Below are positions 35,486 to 47,608 of a DNA stretch of 64,000 nt, one piece after another. Under the pieces are notes generated by a model. It did no database searches. It was not told the DNA's origin and worked only from the letters and a program-made list of their open reading frames with translations. The DNA is taken from assembly GCA_965221125.1 (NCBI GenBank), contig CBDCRW010000004.1:544001-608000 (forward strand). The letters are read 5' to 3'. Both the position numbers and the translations under genes were made by a program. Position 1 is the first letter of the stretch; each line of letters starts with the position of its first letter. This stretch comes from Alphaproteobacteria bacterium (GTDB taxonomy: Bacteria > Pseudomonadota > Alphaproteobacteria > UBA828).

Positions 35486-38194
35486 ATGATCGCAGCGGCA
35501 TGGCCGCGCTGCCGGAAGGGGCCACCATCCCGGCCTGACGCCTCCCCCTCCGCCGGCAGGGGAAACGCTCGCCGGCTACCTTCTTCTCCCCGAACAGTCT
35601 TCTCCGGCGCGGGCCGCGCGGCGGCGGCGCTGCTGCTGTTGGCGCTGCCCTGCGCGCCGGGCCTGGCCGCCGACGGCCCTGAGGCCGCCCGGGAAACCGC
35701 CTACCCCGAAGGCGCGGTCGCCCGCGTCTTGAGCCTGCCGGCCGATACACATTCGGGCACGCCTTCGGACGCCTGGCGTCTGTCGGGACCGGACGCGGCC
35801 CGGTTCCGGGTCGAGGCGGGGGCGCTCCGCTTCGCCGCCCCGCCGGATTTCGAGAAGCCGGAGGATGCGGACGGCGACAACCGCTACGCGGTGACGCTGC
35901 GGCGCGCCGGTGCGGACGGCACGACGATTGCCGTCACCGTTCGGGTGCAGGACCGCGACGAGCCCGGCCGGGCCGTGTTGCGGCCCTGGCGCCCCGTCGT
36001 CGGCGAGCCGGTGACGGTGAGCCTGACCGACCCTGACCGCGCCGACACCGCCCCGGCTCCGACGGTGCAATGGGAACGCTGGCGGGCTCCCGGAGAGTGG
36101 CAGGCGATCCCGCGGGCGACCGGGCTGCACTACACCCCGGCGGCCGCGGACGCGGGCCGTCCGCTCCGCGCGGTGGTCTCATATGCCGACCGCCACGGGC
36201 CGGACCGGCAGGCGGTGGCCGAGCTGCCCAACCCCGTCGTCGGCCCGATGCTGTCCGCGCTCACGGCCCGCACCGACAGCGCCCGCTCGCGCCCGGCCTC
36301 CGAAGACCCCGCCCCGCGCCCGGCCTTCGATCCCCGCATCCTGCATTACGGGGTGCGGTGCGACGAGCGCGACGTGATGACGGTCTCGTTCTCTGCCCCT
36401 CCGGGCGTCCGGGTCTCGGTCAATGGCATCCAGCCCCGGCCGGGACAGGAGGGCTCGGCGGCGGTCCCGGTCACGCCGACAAGCGACGTGGCGGTGACGG
36501 TCGCGGCACCGGACGGGGCCTGGACGACCTACACGCTCCACTGCATGCTGGCCAAACTGTGGACGATCCGCACCGGGCCCGATCCCGCCCGGCCGCTGGG
36601 GGCGCTGCTCGCACTGACCGGGGGTCCCTGGGCGGCGGTCCTCGACGGGCACGGCGTCTCGCGCGCCCATGTCCGGGCCGAGGGCGGCGGGGCGGGCTTC
36701 TTCCTGCGTCCCTTCGGCTCCGGTCCCGATCTCCGCTGGGCGCATTTCGAGCAGATGCCGGAAGCGGAGCGGAAGACGCCAGGCGAGCCACTGCTCCGCT
36801 GGCGGGTGCTCGACCGGGACCTCACGCCGTTGCGCACCGTCGCCACGGCTCTGCCGCTGACCACGACGGGGCGGCACGACTTCCGGCTGCTGGCGGACGG
36901 CTCGACGCTGCTGATGACCTACGAGCCTTCGGTGCGGGACCTGCGGGGGCTGGGGTTCCCGGACCGCGACGGCAAGCCGTACGGCGCAGGCGTCGAGATG
37001 CAGGATTCTGCGATCCAGCTGCGGGGCCCGGACGGCCGGGTGCGCTGGACCTGGAACTCCTGGGGCCGGCTGCCGCTGGAGGACTGCGCCCAGCACCGGT
37101 TCCCCGGCGACTGGGCCCATGTCAACTCCGTCGAATGGACGGAACAAGGCGTGCTGGCGTCCTTCCGGGGCTGCTCGACGGTGGTCATGATCGACCCCGC
37201 CGCGCCGCCCGGCGAGGAGATCGTCTGGCGGATCGGCGCGAGCAACCTTTCTCGCGACGACTGGCAACGCCGCGGCCTCGGGCCGCCGCCGCTCCGCATC
37301 GTCGGCGACCCCGAGGGTGAGTTCTGCGGCCAGCATGCGGCGCAATTGCTGCCTCCCCCTCCGGGCCTGCGCCTGCCGCGCCTGCTGCTGTTCGACAACG
37401 GCGTGGCCTGCGTCATCGATCCCTGGACCGGCGAACCGCTCGGGCGGACCTCCGGCATCTACAGCCGGGCGGTGGAATACGCGCTCGACCTCGAACACGG
37501 CGAGGCGGTCTTCGTGCGCGACCACGCGCTCGGGGGCGCGCGCGACATGCTCGGCCATGCCGGCGGGCATGTCGAACCCCTGCCGGACGGCGGCTGGCTG
37601 GTGAGCTGGGGCGGCCTCGGCCGCGCGTCGCCGGACCGGGTCGGCGGAAAGCGGCCCTCGGACCTGGTGACGCGGGTCGATCCCGCAACCGGCATGGAGA
37701 GTTTCCGGATTGTGGAGGCAGAAAGTGACGGAGCCCACCTGCGTCCCCTGCCGGTGAGCCCGCTCGCGACGATGCGCGCGCCGGGCCGGCTCGCCGCCGT
37801 GCTGCCCGACGTGCCGCCGGCGGGGCATGGCGGCGCGGGAGAGACTGTCGAGGTCGCGGTGGCCTTCTCGCGCCCGGTGGCGGCGTTCGGGCCCGAGACC
37901 GGCTCCGTCGCGGTCGCCGGCGGCGCGCTGGCGGAGGCCGCACCGCTCGACGGCTTCGGCCGCCCGGCTCATGCCTGGCGGCTGGTGCTGGCGCCCTCGG
38001 GCGACGGGCCGATGGAGCTGCGGTTCCGGGCCGGCGTCGCCTGCGCGGGGTCGGCGCCCGGCATCTGCACGGCGGACGGAGAGCGCCTGCGCGGCGTTCC
38101 GGATGCGTTCGCGATCCCACGAAACATCGACGAAGGCGCCGCCCGGGACCGGGCGGCGGACGCGGGACAGGCAACCCGCAGCAGACAGAATTGA
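35486..38194 (+). CDS. Secreted cadherin/Ig-like plus arylsulfotransferase (ASST) domain protein
   Basis: Signal-like segment; cadherin-like PDFEKPEDADGDNRYAVT..V.V.DRDEPG; ASST motifs HDFRLL, DWAHVNSV, LASFR, GQHAA, LFDNG, SRAVEY; C-terminal Ig-like domain. Start uncertain. Confidence 0.82.
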   Translation: MIAAAWPRCRKGPPSRPDASPSAGRGNARRLPSSPRTVFSGAGRAAAALLLLALPCAPGLAADGPEAARETAYPEGAVARVLSLPADTHSGTPSDAWRLSGPDAARFRVEAGALRFAAPPDFEKPEDADGDNRYAVTLRRAGADGTTIAVTVRVQDRDEPGRAVLRPWRPVVGEPVTVSLTDPDRADTAPAPTVQWERWRAPGEWQAIPRATGLHYTPAAADAGRPLRAVVSYADRHGPDRQAVAELPNPVVGPMLSALTARTDSARSRPASEDPAPRPAFDPRILHYGVRCDERDVMTVSFSAPPGVRVSVNGIQPRPGQEGSAAVPVTPTSDVAVTVAAPDGAWTTYTLHCMLAKLWTIRTGPDPARPLGALLALTGGPWAAVLDGHGVSRAHVRAEGGGAGFFLRPFGSGPDLRWAHFEQMPEAERKTPGEPLLRWRVLDRDLTPLRTVATALPLTTTGRHDFRLLADGSTLLMTYEPSVRDLRGLGFPDRDGKPYGAGVEMQDSAIQLRGPDGRVRWTWNSWGRLPLEDCAQHRFPGDWAHVNSVEWTEQGVLASFRGCSTVVMIDPAAPPGEEIVWRIGASNLSRDDWQRRGLGPPPLRIVGDPEGEFCGQHAAQLLPPPPGLRLPRLLLFDNGVACVIDPWTGEPLGRTSGIYSRAVEYALDLEHGEAVFVRDHALGGARDMLGHAGGHVEPLPDGGWLVSWGGLGRASPDRVGGKRPSDLVTRVDPATGMESFRIVEAESDGAHLRPLPVSPLATMRAPGRLAAVLPDVPPAGHGGAGETVEVAVAFSRPVAAFGPETGSVAVAGGALAEAAPLDGFGRPAHAWRLVLAPSGDGPMELRFRAGVACAGSAPGICTADGERLRGVPDAFAIPRNIDEGAARDRAADAGQATRSRQN

Positions 38195-38207
38195 CTGGAG
38201 TGATGCG

Positions 38208-41200
38208 ATGATGACCGATGGTAACCGGAACGCAGGAACGCCCGTATCGCACGCCGCCGCGGATGGTCAGCGGCATTGCTCCCTTGGCGGCCGGAAATGG
38301 TTCCGGTCGTGGCTTGCCCCACTGGCCGGCGCCCGATCCGGTCTGCGAGCCCTGCTGCCGGTCTTGTTCGCATTCCTGCTGCTGGCCGGATGGACGTCCG
38401 GGGCCGGGGCAGTGACGCTCACCGCAAATCCCAGCTTTGTCTGCCAGGGCCAGACGGTGGACATAACCGTTTCCGGTCTGTCCGCCGGTGCATCGGATGT
38501 CTTTTATCTCGCTGGATCCAGCGGGACCGCGACTTCAGGAACCCACTACAGGATCCTGAACTCGGACGGCACTGAAATCAGTGACTACCAGGACGTAGCG
38601 GTCACCGCGGACGAAAACGGCAGATTTACCCTGCGGGTTCAAAACATCAGTGCAGATGGGAGCGCGGATTTTGAATCAGCCAACTACAATGACTTTGAAA
38701 TCATTTTTCATCCCTCCACACATGCCGACTGCGCCACCACCTCCGACGGCGTCACGGTCTCCCCGACTTCCCTTGCCCTGACCGAGCTCGGCTCGTCCAG
38801 CACCATCGAGAAGACCTACACGGTGGTCCTCGACACCGACCCGGGCGTCGACGTCACGATCACGGCGACCAACGGCGACGCCACCGCGGTCGAGGTGGAC
38901 ACCGACGCGGGCACGTCCGGCAACCAGAACACCCTGACCTTCACCCACGGCAACAGCGGCAACTGGAACACGGCGCAGACGGTGACGGTGCGGGCGCTGA
39001 ACGACCTCGACAGTGCGAACGAGTCCTTCAGCATCACGCACGCGGCGACCGCGGCGAGCGGCCCCTACAACGGCATCACCGTCGCCCCGGTGGCGGTGAC
39101 GACGGCCGACGCCGGCCACGGGGTGGTGGTGTCGAAGTCGAGCCTGTCGGTGGCGGCGAACGACGAGACGGACACCTACACGGTGGTTCTGAAGAGCGCA
39201 CCCGGCGGCACGGTGACGATTACGCCGACCTCGGGCGCGACGACGCGGGCGACGGTCTCGCCGGCCTCGCTCAGCTTCACCAACTCGGACTGGAACACGC
39301 CGAAGACCTTCACGGTGACCGGCAAGGGCCAGGGCTCGACCTCGATCAGCCATGCGGTGAGCACGGGCACGACGGCCTATCCGACGTCCCTGACGATTCC
39401 CGCCGTGTCGGTCACGGTGACGGCGGATTCGCGGCAGGTGCTGGACCTTTCGTTCAGTTCGAACAGCAATAACGAGGGTGTCTCCGCCATCCTGACCGTC
39501 ACCGCCACCGGCGGCTCCGGCAACGTGACGGTTACGGGCGGCACGGCGCTGCTGACCTTTTCGGGCGACGGCATCGCGTCTTCGGACTATTCAGTCACTA
39601 CGGCCTCCATCCTCGTCCTGTTTGGAGGCCCGCCCCCCTCCGCCCCTGTCGGCATCGACCTCGCCAGCGACAGCGTCGACGAGCCGAACGAGACGCTGGT
39701 TGTCGGCCTGCAGAACCTGCCGGCCGGCTACCGGGCCGGCACGACCGCCTCGGTCACGATCATCGACCGGAACCCCACCACGGTGACGCTGGCGGGCGGC
39801 GGCACGGTGACGGAGGACGGCGCGAACTCCGCGGACGTCACGGTGACGCTGAGCCGCAACCTGGTGGCCGGGGAGACGGTGACCGTGCCGCTGGCGATCA
39901 CGGGCGCCGGCATCGCGGCGGGCGACTACACGATCGCGCCGGCGCCGGGATCGAGCCTCAACAGGGGCGTGACGCTGAACACCTCGAACCCGCACAGCGC
40001 GGCGCAGCCGGCGGTGGTGTTCACGGGCCACGGCACGAACACGGTGCAGGTGGCGACGCTCCGGGTGACGGCGGTGCAGGACTCCACGGACGAGGGTGCG
40101 TCGGAGGCGCTCGCCGTGGGCTTCGGCAGCGGCAACCGGGCGGTCATGAGCAATCTCGACCGGGCGTCGGGCACCGGCACGACCGGCACCACGACGGCGG
40201 GCACGGCGACGGTGACGATCACCGACGACGACACGTCGGCGGTTCCGGAGGTCTCGATGGAGCTTCAGACCGGGGAGACCTCGAATCGCAACACCGCCGG
40301 GCAGCTGGAGCTTGTCGAGAGCGGGGGCGTGGACGGGGCGGTGTTCAACCTCAGCGCCGACAGCGTGCTGGTCTCGACCCTGACGGTGTGCCTGCGCCTG
40401 ACCGAGACCGGCGGCGACCTTGTGGCCGCGGCCGCGGAGGGCATCAGGACGGCCACGCTGACCAGCAGCGGCAACACCAACGGCGCCGGCATTTACACGC
40501 TCACCTGGGCGGGCGACACGGATGACGAGCGGAACAGCGTGGTGACGGCGACGCTGTTGGCGCCGGAGACGGCGGGCTGTTCGGCCGCGAACGGGACCTA
40601 CACGGTGGCGTCGGCGATGGCGTCGGACGCGGTGTTCATCGAGGACGACGACGCCACGACGGTCGAGCTCACGAGTTCCGACACGAGCATGGCGGAGGGC
40701 GACGCCTCGCAGACGGCGACGCTGACGTTCACGCTCGGGCGCCGGCTCCATGCGGGCGAGGTCCTGGTCGTGCCGTTCACGCTGGCGACGACGACGGGCG
40801 CGAGATTGCCCGGCCATTCGACGCCGGACTTCGCGGTGACGGCGGCGGGCACGGGGGTGACGATCGCGAGGCCCAACACGGCGACCCCGTCGGTGACCTT
40901 CACCGGCCACGGCACCGACACGGTGCGGACCGCGACGGTGACGCTGACGCCGGTGGCGAACCGGGACGACGGCGACACGGCGCGCGAGGAGATCGCGGCG
41001 ACGCTGGCGACCGACAGCGTGCTGGGTTCGACCGCGGGCACCGACACGACGGTCGGCGGCGGCGCCATGCGCCACGCGACGAACTTCGCGGTCGACCTGA
41101 CGCTGGAGGACGACGACGCGCCGGCCGGCGCCACCGAGCTGACGCTCACCCTGTCCTCGGCCTCGGCCCCGGAGGGGAGCGGCGGCACGCGCGACGTCAC

Positions 41201-44200
41201 CGTGACGGTCGCCAAGCCGGCGGGGTCGGCGCGGGTCAGCTACCGGCTGTGCTTCTCCGGCACCGCGACCCTGGACGAGGACGGCGAGCGGGCGCCGGGG
41301 GAGGACTACCGGGTCATCAAGTTCAACGGCGGTCAACAGACGGTGTTCCACGGCGGTCACATGGCGCTGTTCCACACGACGGGGGGCGCGCGCTGCGTCG
41401 GCGGCGGTTCCGTCACCTTCCTTGCGGGCGTGGACAGCCACGCCTGGCGGGTCCGGGTGTTCGGCGACGCCGTCAAGGAGAACGACGAGACGGTGGTGGT
41501 GACGCTCTCCGAGAGCGGGACCCCGCTGCCGGACGGCTGGTCGATATCCTCCGCGGGCAACCCCGCGACCCACACGATCGCCAACGACGACGCGCCGCAC
41601 GTCACGCTGCACGCCGTGGACCCGGTCGCGGTGGAGGGCAGCAGCACCGACACCGCCGCCATCGAGGTGCGCCTGAGCCACGCGCTCGAGGCCGGCGAGA
41701 CCCTGACGGTCAATCTGGACACGAACACCTTTATCTGGGGGAACTCCAGCCTGGACGGATCGCCGGCGGGCGTCGCCTACTCCAGACCGTCGGGCAGAGA
41801 GCACCGGCTGGTGTTCACCGGGCCGAGCGCCCCCGACCGGGCCCGGATCGTCCTTGAAGCGAGCGCGAACAGCGTGAGCGGCGACGGCCTCCAGAGCCGC
41901 GACCACTATGCGGAACTGACCAGCGTGACGGGTTACTCCGGCGCCACCCTGGACAGCCGGCAGGCGAGCCGGCAGTTCCTGCAGGTCATCGACAGCGCGT
42001 CCGCCGCGGGCCACGGCGTGACCCTGTCGGTGCATTCGTGGCCCGACGGCTCGATACGCGAGATCGGGGAGGGCGGCAAGGCGGTGCTCAAGGTCTCCGC
42101 CGCCGGCGGCAGGCCGGTATCGGTGACCGTCGCCGTGCAGCCGGTCACCGCGGACTTCGCCGACCTCGGCCGCGCGAGCGCGGGCGGCCACGGCCCCGGC
42201 GGCCCGGCGAACGCGACGGGCTGGGTCGCCTACAAGGAACGCGACGGGCACCAGGGCCTCGACCTCTACACGGTGAGCATCTTCGAGCAGCCCGCGCCCT
42301 CCGTGTACATGCAGATCCCCATCGTCGACGACGGCCAGGCCGAAGGGCCGGAGACCTTCCGTGCGTTCATCTACCGGACGCCGCCCGGCTACAAGGCGGG
42401 CGGCGGCCTCGCGGGCACGCGGGTGTCGACCGTCGAGTTCACCATCCCGGCAAGCGACGGCGGCCTGCCCCGGAACGCGGCCGCGGTCGAGGTCCCCGAC
42501 ACGCAGGTGGCGAACCTGAAGGTGACGAGGGTCGATGCGAGCACCGCCTCGGCGCGCTGGGACGCGGTCGCGCACGCCACCGGCTACGAGGTGGAGTGGG
42601 ACGCGCTCGACGGCAACGGGCGGTCGATCGCCGCCGGCCTCCACGCCGGCGTGACCGCCACGACGCAGACGATCGAACACCAGGCGCCGGGGGCGGCGTC
42701 GCTCAGGGTGACGGTGGCGCCGGAACATGTCGACGGCAACGGCGACACGCAGGTGCTGTCCGGCCTCGCGGCCACGGCGGTGCTCGACCTGTCGACGCCG
42801 CAGTCCGCGCAGGCGGATTCGATCCAGGCGGGCGCGGCGTCCTGCGACCTGGCGTCGGTGAAGGCGGACGTGAACCGCTATATCGGGGAGACGCAGTACG
42901 GCACGGCGCATGTGGCGCGCTGGAAGAAGGCGCTGGCCGGTCTGAACCGCGAGACCGGCGGCATGACCGCGGCCGGGGCGCGGCAGATGAAGGCGAAGTA
43001 TTCGCCGGGCCGCTGGCAGCCGGTGGTGGACGGCCTCGACTGCCTGGAGAAGGCCGCAACGCCGCAGGCGGAGACGCCGGCGGCGGTCCCCGAACTGAGC
43101 CTCGCGGCCGGTCCCGCCGTGGACGAGGGCGGCAACGCGGCGTTCACCGTCCATGCCGACCCGGCGCCGGCGGCGGAGCTGACCGTGGCCTTCACCGTCG
43201 CCCAGAGCGGCGAGTATCTGGACGCGCCCGGCGCGGGCAGCCGTCAGGTGACCCTGGCGGCGGGCGCCGCGAGCGCCACGCTCGCCATCGCCACGGCGGA
43301 CGACGGCGTGGACGAGCCCGACGGCTCGGTCGGCGTCACCCTCGATGCCGGCGCGGGCTACACCCTGGCGGCCGGCAAGGCGGGCGGCACGGTCGCGGTG
43401 CGCGACAACGACACGCCGGCGGTCAGCATCGCCGCCGGGAGCGGGGTGACGGAGGGAGCCCCGGCCGCGTTCACCCTCACGGCGAACCCGGCGCCGCATG
43501 CCGACCTGACGGTGACGCTGGCGGTGACCCAGAGCGGGGACTTCGCGGCTTCCGGCCAGACCGGCGCGCGGGAGGTCACGATCCCGACCGGGGGCAGCGC
43601 GTCCTTCGAGGTCGCGACGGTGAACGACAGCGCGGACGAGCCGGACGGCTCGGTCACGGCAACCGTCGCCGCCGGAACCGGCTACGCGGTGGCGGCCTCG
43701 CCGGACGACACGGCCTCGGTGGCGGTGGCGGACGACGACGCGGCGCCGGGGGCGCCCGCACTCGCCATCGGCGATGTGAGGGCCAATGAGGGCGACGGGT
43801 TCATGTGGTTCACGGTCACGCTGAGCCCGGCCTCGGACCGTCCGGTATCGGTCGATTACCATACCCGGGAGTCGAACCCGGTGTCGGCGCGCAAGGACAG
43901 CGACTTTCTCCAGGTCGATTTCGGGGGGGTCACGTTCAGTCCGGGCGAGACGAGCAAGCGGTTCTGGGTCTACCTGTTCGACGACAACCACGACGAGGAT
44001 CCGGAGACCTTCGAGGTCGCGCTGTCGCGCCCGACGGGTGGGGCGGTCATCGCCGACGGGGTGGCGGTGGGCACCATCGTCAACGACGACCCGATGCCGG
44101 CGGCGTGGCTGGCGCGCTTCGGGCGCACGGTGGCCGAGCAGGCGCTCGACGGCATCGCAAACCGCATCGCGGCGCCGCGCGAGGCCGGCGCCCGGGGCAC

Positions 44201-45671
44201 GCTCGCCGGGCAGGCGCTGAACCTCGGATCAAGTCCGAGGGCAGGGCCTGGGACGGGTTCGGGGTCTGACGGCGCGGCCGGTGGGCCAGGCGCGGCCAAC
44301 GATAACGCCGCAATGGGCAGCTTTTCCGCCGCCGGCGGCTTCGGAACGCCGGCCGGCCGCTTCGGCACGGTCGGCTTCGGCCACGACGACCATGGCTTCG
44401 GCCAGGGCTTCGCGCAATCCCGCACCATGACGGGGCTGGAGGCGCTGCTGGGATCGAGCTTCACGGCGACGGGGGAGACCGACGCCACCGGCGGCAGCCT
44501 CGCCTTCTGGGGCCGGGCGGCGCAGTCGAGCTTCGACGGCAGGGAAGGCGCCTTCTCGCTCGACGGCGAGGCGACCACCGCCATGCTGGGCGCGGACTAT
44601 GCGCGCGGCAGGTGGCTGGTCGGGCTCGCGCTGATGCAGAGTTCCGGCGAGGGCGGCTATGCCGATACCGGCGCCGATGCGCAGCCCTGTCCCGACGACG
44701 CGGAGGAGGATCTCTGCGACGGCGCGGTGCACGCGGGCGACGGCAAGGTGGAGGCGTCGCTGACGGCCGCCGTCCCCTACGCGGCCATCCAGGCGTCCGA
44801 ACGGCTCAGGCTCTGGGGCGCGGCGGGCCATGGCACGGGCGAGGTGACGCTCAAGCCGGAGACGGACGGATCGCTCAGCTCCGACATCTCCTGGACCATG
44901 GCGGCGGCCGGCGCGCGCGGCGACCTGCTGGCGCCGCCGGGTAGCAGCGGTCCGGCGCTGGCGTTGACCGCGGACGGCCTCTGGGCGCGGACCTCGTCCG
45001 AGAAGACGCACGAGCTTGCGGCGTCGGACTCCGACGTGACCCGGCTCAGGCTCGGTCTGGAGGGCAGCTACCGCATCGCCCTGGAGGAAGGCGGCCACAT
45101 CACGCCCAAGGCGGAGGTGGGCGCGCGCCATGACGGCGGCGACGCCGAGACCGGCTTCGGGGTGGAAGTCGGCGGCGGGCTGGTCTGGAGCGATCCGGGC
45201 CTGGGGCTCAGCCTCGACCTCTCGGGCCGCACGCTGGTCTCCCACAGCTCGGACGACCTGGAGGACCGGGGCTTCGCGGTCTCGCTCGCCTTCGATCCGA
45301 ACCCGGCGACGAAGCGGGGGCCGTCCTTCAGCCTGCGCCAGGACTGGGGCGGCTCGGCCGAGGGCGGGCTCGATGCGCTGTTCCGCGCCGACCCGCTCGC
45401 CGACCGCGCGGGGAGCGCCGAGCCGGAGAGCCGCTGGCAGGCCGAAGCGGCATACGGCTTCCCGGCCTTCTCCGGACGCTTCACCGGCAGCCCGCATGTG
45501 GGGCTGGGGCTCGCCACGGGCGCGCGCGACTACACGCTCGGCTGGCGGCTCTCGCCGGCGGCCAATGCCAACGCGCCCGAGGTGTCCTTCGGCGTGAAGG
45601 CGACGCGCCGGGAGAACGAGGGGGTCGAGCCGGAGCATACGGTCGGGTTCGAGGTCAACGCGCGCTGGTGA
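38208..45671 (+). CDS. Giant adhesin/autotransporter (~2,487 aa) with Calx-beta, FN3 and Ig-like repeats and a C-terminal beta-barrel
   Basis: GGAG RBS before ATG 38208; repeated xDDD and D..DE.DET Calx-beta motifs; AWLARFGRTVA linker; barrel motifs RLRLGLEGS, RHDGGDAETGFG; terminal W. Confidence 0.88.
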   Translation: MMTDGNRNAGTPVSHAAADGQRHCSLGGRKWFRSWLAPLAGARSGLRALLPVLFAFLLLAGWTSGAGAVTLTANPSFVCQGQTVDITVSGLSAGASDVFYLAGSSGTATSGTHYRILNSDGTEISDYQDVAVTADENGRFTLRVQNISADGSADFESANYNDFEIIFHPSTHADCATTSDGVTVSPTSLALTELGSSSTIEKTYTVVLDTDPGVDVTITATNGDATAVEVDTDAGTSGNQNTLTFTHGNSGNWNTAQTVTVRALNDLDSANESFSITHAATAASGPYNGITVAPVAVTTADAGHGVVVSKSSLSVAANDETDTYTVVLKSAPGGTVTITPTSGATTRATVSPASLSFTNSDWNTPKTFTVTGKGQGSTSISHAVSTGTTAYPTSLTIPAVSVTVTADSRQVLDLSFSSNSNNEGVSAILTVTATGGSGNVTVTGGTALLTFSGDGIASSDYSVTTASILVLFGGPPPSAPVGIDLASDSVDEPNETLVVGLQNLPAGYRAGTTASVTIIDRNPTTVTLAGGGTVTEDGANSADVTVTLSRNLVAGETVTVPLAITGAGIAAGDYTIAPAPGSSLNRGVTLNTSNPHSAAQPAVVFTGHGTNTVQVATLRVTAVQDSTDEGASEALAVGFGSGNRAVMSNLDRASGTGTTGTTTAGTATVTITDDDTSAVPEVSMELQTGETSNRNTAGQLELVESGGVDGAVFNLSADSVLVSTLTVCLRLTETGGDLVAAAAEGIRTATLTSSGNTNGAGIYTLTWAGDTDDERNSVVTATLLAPETAGCSAANGTYTVASAMASDAVFIEDDDATTVELTSSDTSMAEGDASQTATLTFTLGRRLHAGEVLVVPFTLATTTGARLPGHSTPDFAVTAAGTGVTIARPNTATPSVTFTGHGTDTVRTATVTLTPVANRDDGDTAREEIAATLATDSVLGSTAGTDTTVGGGAMRHATNFAVDLTLEDDDAPAGATELTLTLSSASAPEGSGGTRDVTVTVAKPAGSARVSYRLCFSGTATLDEDGERAPGEDYRVIKFNGGQQTVFHGGHMALFHTTGGARCVGGGSVTFLAGVDSHAWRVRVFGDAVKENDETVVVTLSESGTPLPDGWSISSAGNPATHTIANDDAPHVTLHAVDPVAVEGSSTDTAAIEVRLSHALEAGETLTVNLDTNTFIWGNSSLDGSPAGVAYSRPSGREHRLVFTGPSAPDRARIVLEASANSVSGDGLQSRDHYAELTSVTGYSGATLDSRQASRQFLQVIDSASAAGHGVTLSVHSWPDGSIREIGEGGKAVLKVSAAGGRPVSVTVAVQPVTADFADLGRASAGGHGPGGPANATGWVAYKERDGHQGLDLYTVSIFEQPAPSVYMQIPIVDDGQAEGPETFRAFIYRTPPGYKAGGGLAGTRVSTVEFTIPASDGGLPRNAAAVEVPDTQVANLKVTRVDASTASARWDAVAHATGYEVEWDALDGNGRSIAAGLHAGVTATTQTIEHQAPGAASLRVTVAPEHVDGNGDTQVLSGLAATAVLDLSTPQSAQADSIQAGAASCDLASVKADVNRYIGETQYGTAHVARWKKALAGLNRETGGMTAAGARQMKAKYSPGRWQPVVDGLDCLEKAATPQAETPAAVPELSLAAGPAVDEGGNAAFTVHADPAPAAELTVAFTVAQSGEYLDAPGAGSRQVTLAAGAASATLAIATADDGVDEPDGSVGVTLDAGAGYTLAAGKAGGTVAVRDNDTPAVSIAAGSGVTEGAPAAFTLTANPAPHADLTVTLAVTQSGDFAASGQTGAREVTIPTGGSASFEVATVNDSADEPDGSVTATVAAGTGYAVAASPDDTASVAVADDDAAPGAPALAIGDVRANEGDGFMWFTVTLSPASDRPVSVDYHTRESNPVSARKDSDFLQVDFGGVTFSPGETSKRFWVYLFDDNHDEDPETFEVALSRPTGGAVIADGVAVGTIVNDDPMPAAWLARFGRTVAEQALDGIANRIAAPREAGARGTLAGQALNLGSSPRAGPGTGSGSDGAAGGPGAANDNAAMGSFSAAGGFGTPAGRFGTVGFGHDDHGFGQGFAQSRTMTGLEALLGSSFTATGETDATGGSLAFWGRAAQSSFDGREGAFSLDGEATTAMLGADYARGRWLVGLALMQSSGEGGYADTGADAQPCPDDAEEDLCDGAVHAGDGKVEASLTAAVPYAAIQASERLRLWGAAGHGTGEVTLKPETDGSLSSDISWTMAAAGARGDLLAPPGSSGPALALTADGLWARTSSEKTHELAASDSDVTRLRLGLEGSYRIALEEGGHITPKAEVGARHDGGDAETGFGVEVGGGLVWSDPGLGLSLDLSGRTLVSHSSDDLEDRGFAVSLAFDPNPATKRGPSFSLRQDWGGSAEGGLDALFRADPLADRAGSAEPESRWQAEAAYGFPAFSGRFTGSPHVGLGLATGARDYTLGWRLSPAANANAPEVSFGVKATRRENEGVEPEHTVGFEVNARW

Positions 45672-45764
45672 GGCATGGCATGGGCCGATGACCGCGCCCG
45701 GGAGCGGAGACCGTCCGATGCGGCCTCCGCTCCGGCGGCGACGCCCGATCCCGGCGGCTGAGCC

Positions 45765-46471
45765 GTGGCGCGTCGGGTCGGCGGATGGGACGCGGTGCGG
45801 GCCTGGCGCTTCATCCGCGCGAGCAAGGCGTACCGCGCGGCCTGGGCGAAGCGTCTCCCGATGCCCGGTCTGCCCGAGCGGGCGCCGTTCCCGGTGCGGC
45901 TCCAGACGTCGGTCGATCTCGCCGCCATGGCCTGGGGCATGGCGGCCTTTGAAGATCCTTATGCGGAACGGCCGCTGGCGCCCTTCTGGACGCATGCCGG
46001 GGTGATCGACGGCCGGGTGACGCGCGATGCGCCGCCGCTGGTCCGGCTCGCGGCCGAGGGCGGGGCGACGCTTGACGGGCTCCGCCTCGCCGACGGCGCG
46101 CTGATGCTCCGGATCGAGCGGCCGGGCGTGTCGGTTTCGGTCCGCCTGCCGCGGGGCGCGGCGTTTCCCGACGATGGCGGGCTGCGCCTCGTCCTGGAAC
46201 GGGAGGTGGCCGCCATCGAGGACATCTGGGCGGGGTTCCCGGCCCCTCGATCGGGGCGGGCACGGGGGACGGGGACGGTGAGCTTCTGCTGGCGCTGGAA
46301 AGCGAGGCGGAGGGGCTCACGCAGAAGGACTATGCGCTGCGGCTCTGGACGCCGGAGCGGGTCGCGGAGGAATACTACACCGGCAGCTGGATGCATGAGC
46401 GCGTCAAGCGGCGCTTCGCCAGGGCAAGGGCGGTCCTGAAGCGGTATCGGGACATGGCGACGGGCAAGTAG
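45765..46471 (+). CDS. FseA-like transcriptional activator (DUF6499 + DUF2285) split by a -1 frameshift near 46260-46275
   Basis: Frame 0: AWRFIRASKAYRAAW...WGMAAFEDP. Frame -1: ELLLALESEAEGLTQKDYALRLWTPERVAEEYYTGSWMHERVKRRFARARAVLKRYRDMATGK* (TAG 46469-46471), which resembles the DUF2285 HTH. Confidence 0.72.
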
Positions 46472-46869
46472 TCCGCAGGACTCGGCGCGCCGGCTGCCGG
46501 TAAGCGCCGCGTTTTCGTTTCCGATTGAAATCGACGCGGAATCCCCGGTTCGGATCGACGAGACCGCCGGTGACGGTCACGCCGGGTGCATTTCATCCTT
46601 GTTTGTCCGAACCCGTCGAACGTCACCGTCGCGCTCGCCCGGCCGCCGCGGACGGTCGCGACGGGCGCTGGGCATCCACCGCCGATTCTCACTGTAGCCA
46701 CCGCTTCCCGCGCGGTCGCCGGCCTGGCCGAGTAACGGAGCCGTGCGGGCCGAACCGCGCCTGCCGATATCCCCCGCGCCGGACCGCCATGCGTCTCCAT
46801 GGAGGGGCAATCCGGTCCCGGCCCGGCCGGGGACCCGCCGCGAGCACATGGACGCGAATTCGCAGTCCC

Positions 46870-46945
46870 GGCGCCGATCGGCGGCGATCGGCGCCCGCTG
46901 GCGGTCAAACTGAGGGGCGTTTTTCTGCACCCGAAAATCGCCCCT
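46870..46945. repeat. Two adjacent inverted repeats upstream of the excisionase gene
   Basis: GGCGCCGATCG-N4-CGATCGGCGCC (46870-46895, perfect) and AGGGGCGTTTTTC-N7-GAAAATCGCCCCT (46913-46945, 12/13). Confidence 0.8.
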
Positions 46946-47033
46946 ACCCCTCCCCGCCCTTCTTCGCTCCGATGCCCGCACATGCGCCCCGAGCCCCGGG
47001 GCCGGTCGGGACAGGCAGCAACGGGAGACGGCA

Positions 47034-47261
47034 ATGACGGACGGGGAGACGATCTATCTGAACACGCGACAGGCGGCGGCGCATCTGGGGCTGTCGACGC
47101 GCACGCTGGACCGCTACCGGGTGTCGGGCGAAGGGCCGGTGTTCCTGCGCTTCGGCGGCCGGGTGCGCTATCTGCGCGAGGACCTCGACGCCTGGGCGAA
47201 GACGCGCCGGCGCAAGTCCACCTCCGACGACGGCACCGCGCTCGCCGGAGCGGGCCGGTGA
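47034..47261 (+). CDS. RdfS/AlpA-like excisionase (recombination directionality factor, winged HTH)
   Basis: YLNTRQAAAHLGLSTRTLDRYR..GEGPVF.RFGGRVRY...DLDAW...STSD; GGAG RBS. Confidence 0.87.
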   Translation: MTDGETIYLNTRQAAAHLGLSTRTLDRYRVSGEGPVFLRFGGRVRYLREDLDAWAKTRRRKSTSDDGTALAGAGR

Positions 47262-47299
47262 GGGGCGCCGCCGAACGGGCGGTTGCGGCGGCAGCCGGG

Positions 47300-47608
47300 A
47301 TGAACCGCACGGTCATCGCGCTGCGCGGTATCGGAACCATCGCGCTGGTGGCGACGGTCATGACGACCGGGTCCGATCTCGCGCTGGCGACCACGGACAC
47401 GACCTTCGACGCGCCGCTCGACACGGTGCAGGACATCGTGGGCGGCACGGGCGGCCAGCTGGCGGCGGCCTTGGCCGTCGGCGCGGCGCTGGTCGGCTCC
47501 GTGCTGCGCTTCAACGCCATGCAGCTGATGGGCGCGGTCGGGGTCGGCATCGCCGCGGGCGCAGGCACCGGCATCGTCACCGGCCTCGTCGGCACGGCGA
47601 TCGTCTGA
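47300..47608 (+). CDS. traA: Conjugative pilin (TraA/VirB2-like)
   Basis: Leader plus two hydrophobic helices, immediately before traL; alternative in-frame GTG start at 47258. Confidence 0.72.
   Translation: MNRTVIALRGIGTIALVATVMTTGSDLALATTDTTFDAPLDTVQDIVGGTGGQLAAALAVGAALVGSVLRFNAMQLMGAVGVGIAAGAGTGIVTGLVGTAIV

Follow-up and report, generated by a model that had tools for sequence, protein, structure and literature searches.

The classic example of a mobile element that uses ribosomal frameshifting to restrain its own transfer activator is FseA. The shift in FseA (Msi172-Msi171 of the Mesorhizobium element ICEMlSymR7A) and its two-ORF (open reading frame) homologues is a +1 programmed ribosomal frameshift (PRF) at UUUC next to the WGL/UGGGGG motif, between the DUF6499 domain and the middle domain (PMC4755241, PMC10359603). 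Here we analyzed a split FseA-like gene in a stretch of 64,000 nt from an uncultured alphaproteobacterium (contig CBDCRW010000004.1, positions 544,001 to 608,000), which is called the window throughout. An initial annotation, made from the letters of the window alone, had proposed that this gene needs a -1 frameshift at a non-canonical site; it had also cited the +1 frameshift of Mesorhizobium FseA at the WG site, which the same two reports confirm. Comparison with many related genes makes it likely that the full-length activator is made only if ribosomes undergo a programmed -1 frameshift in the linker that joins the middle domain to the helix-turn-helix (HTH) domain.

The window gene resembles FseA in its predicted three-part architecture, in the AW.F.R and WG motifs and in a DUF2285-like HTH (PMC10359603, PMC4755241). 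Like FseA, it belongs to a conjugative element, lies just upstream of an excisionase-type HTH gene, and needs a frame change to give the full-length protein, while the unshifted product would have no DNA-binding capacity. However, the FseA shift is +1 and lies between DUF6499 and the middle domain, whereas the one considered here is -1 and lies about 100 codons further on, in the middle-HTH linker and within a C/G block. The window gene differs also in that its N domain is undetected by Pfam and its C domain scores under the Pfam cut-off. Yersinia RovC (PDB 6xz5), the only solved structure that the family matched, differs in being a single ORF for a type VI secretion system regulator (Pfam description), with no frameshift. 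With dnaX and the IS1/IS3 transposases the window gene shares overlapping frames, of which the downstream one is -1, and a reduced synonymous variability at the site; unlike these -1 systems, it has no A/U-rich heptamer and no supported hairpin or pseudoknot.

The novel aspect is probably an FseA-like activator gated by a frameshift that goes in the -1 direction, lies in the second inter-domain linker and depends on a G/C-only signal. In the accessible text of the literature on FseA frameshifting, DUF2285, DUF6499 and PRF in activators of integrative and conjugative elements, only the +1 site is described (PMC10359603, PMC4755241, PMC5009743), and an earlier mention of a -1 shift is possible. 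The 2023 curation left out environmental whole-genome shotgun sequences, where the subfamily of the window gene lives.

Reading frames and family assignment

The frame-0 ORF lies on the forward strand at 45765..46439, from a GTG start at 45765 to a TGA stop at 46437-46439, and its 224 amino acids (aa) are the predicted unshifted product. In translation, residues 1 to ~160 are protein-like (MARRVGGWDAVRAWRFIRAS...AWGMAAFEDPYAERPLAPFW...IEDIWAGFPAPRSG) and correspond to the DUF6499-like and middle domains, while the final ~58 residues are Arg/Ser/Gly-rich and represent an off-frame reading of the C-terminal domain. The translated segment RAWRFIRAS (45798..45824, forward strand) is the counterpart of the DUF6499 alpha-2 motif AWEFLRRN, as defined in PMC10359603, and aligns with AWECLRRNPQY of RovC. 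The WG motif TGG GGC ATG GCG GCC TTT GAA GAT CCT (45933..45959, forward strand) is read as W-G-M-A-A-F-E-D-P, all in frame 0; its WG codons TGG GGC occupy 45933-45938 and MAAFEDP continues in the same frame with no frame change. An N-domain profile covers 45783-46208 in one single frame. The translation thus bears out the initial annotation, which had placed the N-terminal half in frame 0 and read WG straight into AAFEDP. By alignment, the motif is the positional counterpart of the FseA +1 PRF site, and it does not serve as a shift site here. Since there is no +1 shift on UUUC beside WGL, the window gene should be regarded as FseA-like in its working, and not as of the FseA type.

The -1 frame (codons from 45767+3k) is open from 46076 to a TAG at 46469-46471 and encodes ...GDGDGELLLALESEAEGLTQKDYALRLW...KRYRDMATGK, with a 3' part that is a clean HTH-like sequence, GELLLALESEAEGLTQKDYALRLWTPERVAEEYYTGSWMHERVKRRFARARAVLKRYRDMATGK. 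Its coding part, supported by frame-specific dN/dS (ratio of non-synonymous to synonymous substitution rates) and by the wobble phase, is placed at 46247..46471 on the forward strand, comprising the linker (P)SIGAGTGDGDG and then a DUF2285/RovC_DNA-bd-like HTH (ELLLALESEAEGLT...KRYRDMATGK) up to the TAG stop. The assignment of the HTH half to the -1 frame in the initial annotation was therefore correct. The frame-0 stop falls 165 nt inside this C-domain, whose conserved helix ELLLAL begins at 46280. An ORF scan of the window found no ORF of at least 40 aa with an ATG, GTG or TTG start that ends at 46471.

The family assignment rests on profile-level links, the Pfam labels being weak for the window gene itself. 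Its -1 part reached 15.2 bits (E 0.033) against PF10074 (RovC_DNA-bd, formerly DUF2285), under the cut-off of 26.4, and its frame-0 ORF, with the N-terminal half, had no Pfam match at E<=1; NCBIfam gave no match. Against the same PF10074 cut-off, the related proteins P0031 and P0035 scored 23.5 and 21.3 bits, and more distant single-ORF relatives 50-63 bits. P0035 is a single ORF whose N and C parts share ~74% and 71% identity, respectively, with those of the window gene, and it matches RovC 6xz5 at both ends (E 6.5e-4). A phmmer scan of 1.84 billion representatives with P0035 gave 288 matches at E<=1e-3; among the 138 new proteins listed, distant relatives lie above threshold for PF20109 (formerly DUF6499) and PF10074, with PF20109 scores of 26.2 bits for P0126 and 39.9 bits for P0202. 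In two relatives, P0128 and P0138, one full-length ORF contains both domains. A family profile was built from six sequences (P0035, P0031, P0128, P0138, P0169 and the Skermanella plasmid gene L040). It matches RovC 6xz5 over residues 15-249 (E 2.9e-23), spanning AWECLRRNPQY, WG...DP...FW and the C-terminal HTH. The N and C parts form one collinear polypeptide in P0128, P0138 and RovC. By these profile matches, the gene is assigned to the FseA/RovC superfamily as a divergent activator with DUF6499-like, middle and DUF2285-type HTH domains, in this order.

The frame break in relatives and selection on both halves

A scan of species-representative genomes yielded 39 loci (L001-L039), of which 22, from 17 assemblies, hold both halves of the gene; the remaining 17 are contig-end fragments or relics (e.g., L024 with an in-frame deletion and the multi-frame L028). 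The C-domain lies one frame back from the N-domain in all 22 two-half loci as well as in the window, with tblastn and hmmsearch of six-frame ORFs in agreement. Judged by contig naming, the 17 assemblies include MEGAHIT-style, SPAdes-style and chromosome-level ones, which points to several assemblers and read types. A protein search with the N-terminal 168 residues of the window gene gave 120 clusters. The frame-0 ORF followed by the same off-frame tail was found in 96 of these, 17 stop at or before the C/G block or match part of it only, and 2 extend in frame 0 only slightly beyond it. Just 5 clusters (P0031, P0035, P0067, P0070 and P0109) carry the -1-frame domain in their own reading frame, and only P0031 and P0035 are clean single ORFs, the other three having further frame changes. 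When the search words were taken from the C-domain, just 6 proteins of 127-406 aa were retrieved.

The nearest relatives of the single-ORF forms are split: P0031 is 98% identical to P0032, and P0109 is 99% identical to P0100. P0070 has 100% identity to P0067 in the first 150 aa but another frame structure. In a quickly built, midpoint-rooted tree of the N domain (98 rows, 144 columns, with support from the Shimodaira-Hasegawa-like approximate likelihood ratio test only), the six single-ORF rows are six separate tips amid split relatives. By their sequence relationships, the single-ORF forms appear to be derived from split forms.

Selection was tested on 23 aligned genes (the 22 loci and the window) by the median Nei-Gojobori (NG86) dN/dS over 253 pairs. 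The N part gave 0.36 in frame 0, 1.66 in frame +1 and 1.74 in frame -1, and the C part gave 1.13 in frame 0, 1.26 in frame +1 and 0.55 in frame -1; the values are rough because the pairs are non-independent and the alignment is nucleotide-based, but their direction is clear. The codon position that varies most is at first position 3 of frame 0; in the interval 46230-46274 it changes to position 2 of frame 0, equivalent to the third position in the -1 frame, and from ~46260 on the wobble follows the -1 codons, at their third position. In the C part the -1 frame is open for 65-74 codons in 20 of the 23 sequences, after divergence to 49-62% amino-acid identity, and no second compensating or disrupting indel has accumulated in the 22 loci. 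Both halves are under frame-specific purifying selection. According to the initial annotation, recoding would be supported if many homologues shared the frame break and both halves were under purifying selection; this is the pattern observed, with the break present in 22/22 loci. Single continuous ORFs among close homologues, which it had listed as a refuting outcome, were not seen, with only 2/120 clusters clean and their nearest relatives split.

No conserved start of the -1 frame was found: from -150 to +30 of the C-domain, 14 of the 23 sequences lack any ATG, GTG or TTG, and in the others such codons are scattered. Stops of the -1 frame in L004 and L008 place the frame change after ~46219; together with the start of ELLLAL at 46280, this confines the change to ~60 nt.

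Two diverged copies of the split gene occur together in several assemblies, as L010+L011 (OY763326.1), L012+L023 (CBDEUT010000009.1), L002+L005, L001+L008 and L013+L014. Often one copy lies beside genes of a type IV secretion system (T4SS) and the other beside integrases or IS66/IS91, which suggests repeated acquisition or decay of related elements within one genome. A DUF2285-like ORF was also noticed in L030 (L030:3813-3995, a metagenome-assembled genome (MAG) of Binatia), directly upstream of an N-domain fragment and in a different frame (profile E 1.6e-12); a stand-alone QseM-like gene and a rearranged copy are both conceivable.

The linker block and the origin of the frame change

The middle-HTH linker contains a near-invariant C/G block at 46239..46268 on the forward strand, CCG GYC CCT CGN NCG GGG CGG GNN CGG GGG, which is proposed as the recoding signal. 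Over the 30 nt from 46239 the mean entropy is 0.266, compared with 0.538 for the whole gene; just one other 30-nt segment of the gene scores lower. The near-invariance extends to synonymous positions, and the G-runs are fixed at the -1-frame synonymous positions 46255, 46258, 46264 and 46267. The G-runs are thus conserved beyond coding requirement. The tract CGG GCA CGG GGG ACG GGG ACG, in which the initial annotation had sought the slip, is indeed located at 46257-46277. The region is G-rich as stated, but the substitutions described below favour 46244-46256, upstream of or at the 5' edge of that tract.

Three Z_ZZN tetramers, counted in the frame-0 register, are candidate slip sites on the forward strand. 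Candidate site A is C_CCU at 46244..46247 (tRNA-Pro, CCU -> CCC), with CCCT in 23/23 sequences. The codon CCT is rare: across 24 ORFs of the window it encodes 25 of 648 Pro residues (3.9%), and 12 of 310 when the initial 450 nt of the 23 genes are counted. It is nevertheless fixed at 46245-46247 (23/23). Candidate site 1 is the first G_GGG at 46253..46256 (GGGG in 21/23, GGGA in 2/23). Candidate site 2 is the second G_GGG at 46265..46268, present in 21/23 and absent in L006 and L017; it lies in the G5 run 46264-46268, the longest homopolymer available for transcriptional slippage. The predicted junction peptides for the three sites are ...FPAP-SIGAGTGDGDGE..., ...PRSG-AGTGDGDGE... and ...GRARG-DGDGE..., respectively.

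Substitutions were read under each assumed slip. A slip on CCU (46245-47) gives a synonymous/non-synonymous balance of 242/512 and a summed amino-acid entropy of 5.49, a slip on the first GGG (46254-56) gives 279/547 and 5.73, and a slip on the second GGG (46266-68) gives 143/612 and 6.23. The most variable base of the block, 46261, takes all four bases; in the -1 frame (GGN) this amounts to 171 synonymous and 0 non-synonymous pairs, and in frame 0 it would be read as A, G, E or V. It can be argued that the -1 frame is therefore already read upstream of the G5 run. In 89 anchored frame-0 peptides, the pair of residues that follows P-x-P is radically variable (R/W/P/Q/L/S and P/S/R/A/L/F/Q), mostly through changes at third positions in the -1 frame; the argument is blurred by the fact that the same bases form the loop of a possible hairpin. 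The break persists without the second G_GGG in L006, L017, P0024, P0025, P0034, P0051 and P0053, and it is kept in P0102, where at the protein level the codon of the first G_GGG is missing. The G5 run is disfavoured as the main slip site, having the worst synonymous/non-synonymous balance and being absent in L006 and L017. Read from these substitution patterns, a slip at 46244-46256, on C_CCU or on the first G_GGG, is most likely. More than one site may contribute, because any junction in a flexible linker should give a working protein.

Such tetramers were examined by Sharma et al. (2014), who assayed all 16 of them in E. coli (PMC4066793). In that study, the order with a pseudoknot 5 nt downstream is A_AA.G >> U_UU.C > U_UU.U > C_CC.U = C_CC.C > A_AA.A, so that C_CC.U is one of six shift-prone tetramers. 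The likeness of the C_CCU site to this class lies in the single-tRNA slip and in the activity of C_CC.U in E. coli with a stimulator 5 nt downstream; the invariant G-tract of the window gene begins exactly 5 nt after C_CCU. The same study describes E. coli -1 motifs as dominated by A/U and links G/C-rich motifs, such as the one found here, to low efficiency.

As for the stimulator, the 16S rRNA encoded at 22089-23605 of the window ends in the canonical ...CACCUCCUUUCU with the CCUCC anti-Shine-Dalgarno (anti-SD) sequence, and therefore the G-runs could pair with 16S. With the SD-like GGCGG at 46255-46259, the spacing of 6-17 nt upstream that PMC4066793 gives for such stimulators is reached only relative to the least favoured slip site. 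A G-quadruplex was rejected as a universal stimulator, since the four-tract motif occurs in 10/23 sequences only. Over 45600-47100, Rfam yielded no family, and the only matches were chance microRNA ones below threshold.

Taken together, a mechanism may be proposed in which most ribosomes would keep frame 0 and release the 224-aa protein without a DNA-binding domain, and a minority would slip back one base within the block 46239-46268. The slip would be that of a single tRNA on a Z_ZZN tetramer, either C_CCU (46244-46247) or the first G_GGG (46253-46256), and the neighbouring invariant G-runs might stimulate it through SD-like pairing with the CCUCC tail of 16S or through structure. Slipped ribosomes would proceed into the HTH domain, and the low output would keep the activator scarce, which might then act on the adjacent HTH_17 (excisionase-type) gene and the F-type conjugation operon. 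We infer that the slip is ribosomal, where its exact site is, that its efficiency is low, that its purpose is regulatory and which promoter is its target.

Several observations weigh against a programmed ribosomal shift. In codon views of the 23 sequences, no X_XXZ_ZZN heptamer occurs at 46220-46279 in any of them. The tract is accordingly no X_XXY_YYZ heptamer, just as the initial annotation had remarked; its term 'non-canonical' is apt in this sense only, since Z_ZZN tetramers are a recognised class of -1 motif (PMC4066793). The same study ascribes the G_GG.G signal in E. coli to SD-like initiation and not to slippage. The three candidate sites are not separable, and the in-frame variants P0031, P0070 and P0121 join at the G-runs, fitting G-run slippage equally well. 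Folding predicts, for every sequence, a hairpin in which 46239-46246 pairs with 46253-46259 (-12 to -16 kcal/mol; 98.7% of cells paired). However, it has 0 pairs with a compensatory change and is no stabler than dinucleotide shuffles (z -1.3 to +0.3); with no covariation and with shuffles folding as well, it was set aside as a possible but unsupported stimulator. Downstream of 46253 no conserved structure was found (consensus -4.25 kcal/mol). Furthermore, the C-part dN/dS of 0.55 is only moderately low and comes from non-independent pairs on a nucleotide alignment, and the relatives are all MAG contigs. Many of the other loci adjoin integrases, IS66/IS91 or housekeeping genes and have no T4SS, and for this reason some copies may be relics.

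The alternatives differ in whether the two halves are joined at all. G-runs are prone to homopolymer errors, and a missing G in the window would mimic the break, but this can practically be dismissed: the identical break recurs in 22 loci from 17 assemblies and in 96/120 protein clusters, and an error private to this assembly is therefore excluded. It is highly improbable that the gene is an inherited dead one, in which a single ancestral frameshift was spread by a mobile element and the C half is no longer expressed. Many loci do lack a T4SS and lie beside integrases or IS elements, and truncated or multi-frame relics exist (L024-L039, e.g., L028). However, in the two-half genes the C part has kept its -1 wobble periodicity and a dN/dS of 0.55 against 1.1-1.3 at 49-62% identity, and its frame has stayed open for 65-74 codons in 20/23 sequences with no second indel in 22 loci. 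A frame-0 protein working alone, beside an HTH made separately from a non-standard start and never fused to it, has an equally small probability. Such a QseM-like DUF2285 protein has a precedent, since stand-alone QseM proteins exist and bind the DUF6499 domain, as PMC10359603 reports; the G-runs are moreover SD-like and the 16S tail is the canonical CCUCC. It is opposed by the lack of a conserved ATG, GTG or TTG in the -1 frame (none nearby in 14/23) and by the collinearity of the parts in single-ORF P0128, P0138 and RovC. Coupling of termination and reinitiation is excluded because the frame-0 stop lies 165 nt inside the C-domain.

The other alternatives keep the fusion but move the change away from the ribosome. 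If RNA polymerase added a G in the G4 run (46253-46256) or in the G5 run (46264-46268), some mRNAs would be in frame, and one inserted base yields exactly the required -1 frame. The invariance of the G-runs even at the -1-frame synonymous positions 46255, 46258, 46264 and 46267 fits such transcriptional slippage, as do the junctions of the in-frame variants, which map to G-runs (after ...RG in P0070 and P0121, after ...GRG in P0031). Known productive transcriptional slippage, however, uses A/T runs of ~7-9 nt or hairpin-assisted heteropolymers, whereas the runs here are just 4-5 nt long. The longest of them, G5, is absent in 2/23 sequences, the break persists in the seven relatives named above that lack it, and the synonymous variation at 46261 (171 vs 0) argues that the -1 frame is read upstream of it; we consider this explanation unlikely. 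Slipped-strand mispairing of the G tracts in the DNA would instead give a heritable subpopulation switching between OFF (split) and ON (single ORF). It could account for rare single-ORF variants with near-identical split relatives (P0031/P0032 at 98%; P0070/P0067 at 100% over 150 aa), but the tracts of known contingency loci are longer and length-variable, while those of the block are short and practically fixed (GGGG in 21/23 at site 1, G_GGG in 21/23 at site 2). ON forms make up at most 5 of 120 clusters, and P0067, P0070 and P0109 carry extra breaks and look like sequencing or assembly errors. Phase variation is thus very unlikely, and a programmed -1 ribosomal frameshift stays the preferred explanation.

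Wider clade and genomic setting

The break is not confined to close relatives. The 138 new representatives listed comprise 62 N-only proteins with a complete N-domain profile, 11 with both domains, 14 C-only and 51 partial ones, and in 92 of the 98 rows whose N domain is complete the gene is not one continuous ORF. The initial annotation had suggested a site evolved independently in this lineage; the site does differ from that of FseA, but it is not peculiar to the lineage, as N-only ORFs dominate the wider clade. A sister subfamily, called KK-type here (P0175, P0137, P0149, P0280, P0263-P0347), also has N-only ORFs with an off-frame tail and a break in the same linker. Lys-Lys occurs in the linker of 49 of 92 relatives of P0175, and in 48 of these 49 it lies exactly 7 residues after a conserved Trp; the residue before it can have an NNA codon in 48/49, and Lys makes up 2.5% of these proteins. 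Degenerate frame-threading was informative only for tails of at least ~80 aa, short tails scoring no better than shuffles. The off-frame tail of P0175 threads onto the DUF2285 domain in the -1 frame (score 234, vs 140 in +1 and a shuffle maximum of 133). A -1 signal was obtained from six tails, whereas the signal of three others (P0147, P0183 and P0231) was +1, which could reflect a different break, an extra indel or an artefact. The protein sequences suggest that the KK-type uses a classical A_AAA_AAG heptamer. In 30 of the other 43 relatives, there is a single Lys at the KK position and a stop ~8 residues later; together with the Lys-Lys forms, these suggest A-rich -1 slip sites at the same place.

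Where the KK-type has Lys-Lys, the window gene has NCG GGG: its residues at that position are S-G (TCG GGG, 46251-46256), and the first G_GGG sits 7 residues after the conserved Trp, matching the KK position. This gives a positional-homology argument for the first G_GGG. The tblastn search of P0138, P0202, P0178, P0217 and P0318 against plasmids yielded just two weak matches, one Skermanella single-ORF gene (L040) and, for three of the queries, no match.

The chances are about even that FseA/RovC-type activators have a second, hitherto undescribed recoding site, a -1 shift in the middle-DUF2285 linker that is the normal state of the clade, with A_AAA_AAG in some subfamilies and a G/C-only signal in the one studied here. 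If so, frameshift gating would have two separate evolutionary origins in the same regulator family, with different junctions and opposite directions of the shift, and selection would favour low-probability synthesis of the activator and not one particular site. The signal of the window gene (C_CCU and/or G_GGG with invariant G-runs) would stand outside the A/U-rich rule for bacterial -1 sites; it would add a natural G/C-rich bacterial -1 signal and a test case for single-tRNA slippage and G-run stimulators. In current annotation each split gene appears as a hypothetical protein that ends in a nonsense tail, the DNA-binding half being unannotated, and regulators of conjugative elements in these uncultured Alphaproteobacteria are therefore missed.

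The split gene is followed, after a spacer of 560 nt, by an HTH_17 (excisionase-type) gene at 47034..47261 on the forward strand and then by F-type T4SS genes on the same strand (traL 47620, traE 47923, traK 48486, traB 49280, traC 51170, ... traH 60054), all assigned by Pfam. The T4SS set comprises TraL, TraE, TraK, TraB/TrbI, TraC, TrbI-F, an S26 peptidase, TraW, TraU, TraN and TraH, and the same downstream order is found in L001, L004, L011, L020 and L022. The HTH_17 gene and the F-type T4SS operon are presumably the target of the activator. An inverted repeat, AGGGGCGTTTTTC-N7-GAAAATCGCCCCT (46913..46945, forward strand; 13-nt arms, 92% complementary), lies ~90 nt before the HTH_17 start; its block is conserved in L001, L004 and L011 and partly conserved or altered in L020 and L022. 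By analogy with the FseA box upstream of PrdfS (PMC10359603), it is a possible operator. A sigma-70 promoter scan gave 0 sites and one weak terminator-like site. In the window, no paralogue like QseM, the antagonist of FseA, and no second DUF2285-like ORF was found at E<=1e-3 with a small profile, and no quorum-sensing genes were seen, no search being aimed at traR or traI. The DNA of 45600-47300 had no match among plasmids.

Directly upstream of the split gene ends a Calx-beta, autotransporter-like ORF of 2614 aa (37827..45671). In 33 of 39 loci, including those that hold only a regulator fragment, the FseA-like gene is immediately preceded by a conserved counterpart of the last ~320 residues of this ORF, so the Calx-beta ORF and the regulator appear to travel as a unit. 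Elsewhere in the window, ARAGORN reported a 98-nt tRNA-Gly(tcc) at 11953-12050 on the reverse strand, which is probably a false positive; it lies inside a long ORF with high G+C at third codon positions (11588-14461, reverse strand). A complete rRNA operon at 22089-27492 (16S 22089-23605, tRNA-Ile, tRNA-Ala, 23S 24270-27011, 5S 27201-27316, tRNA-Met 27416-27492) sits between housekeeping genes of the asd/leuB type and the element-like region, and its tRNA-Met could be an integration site.

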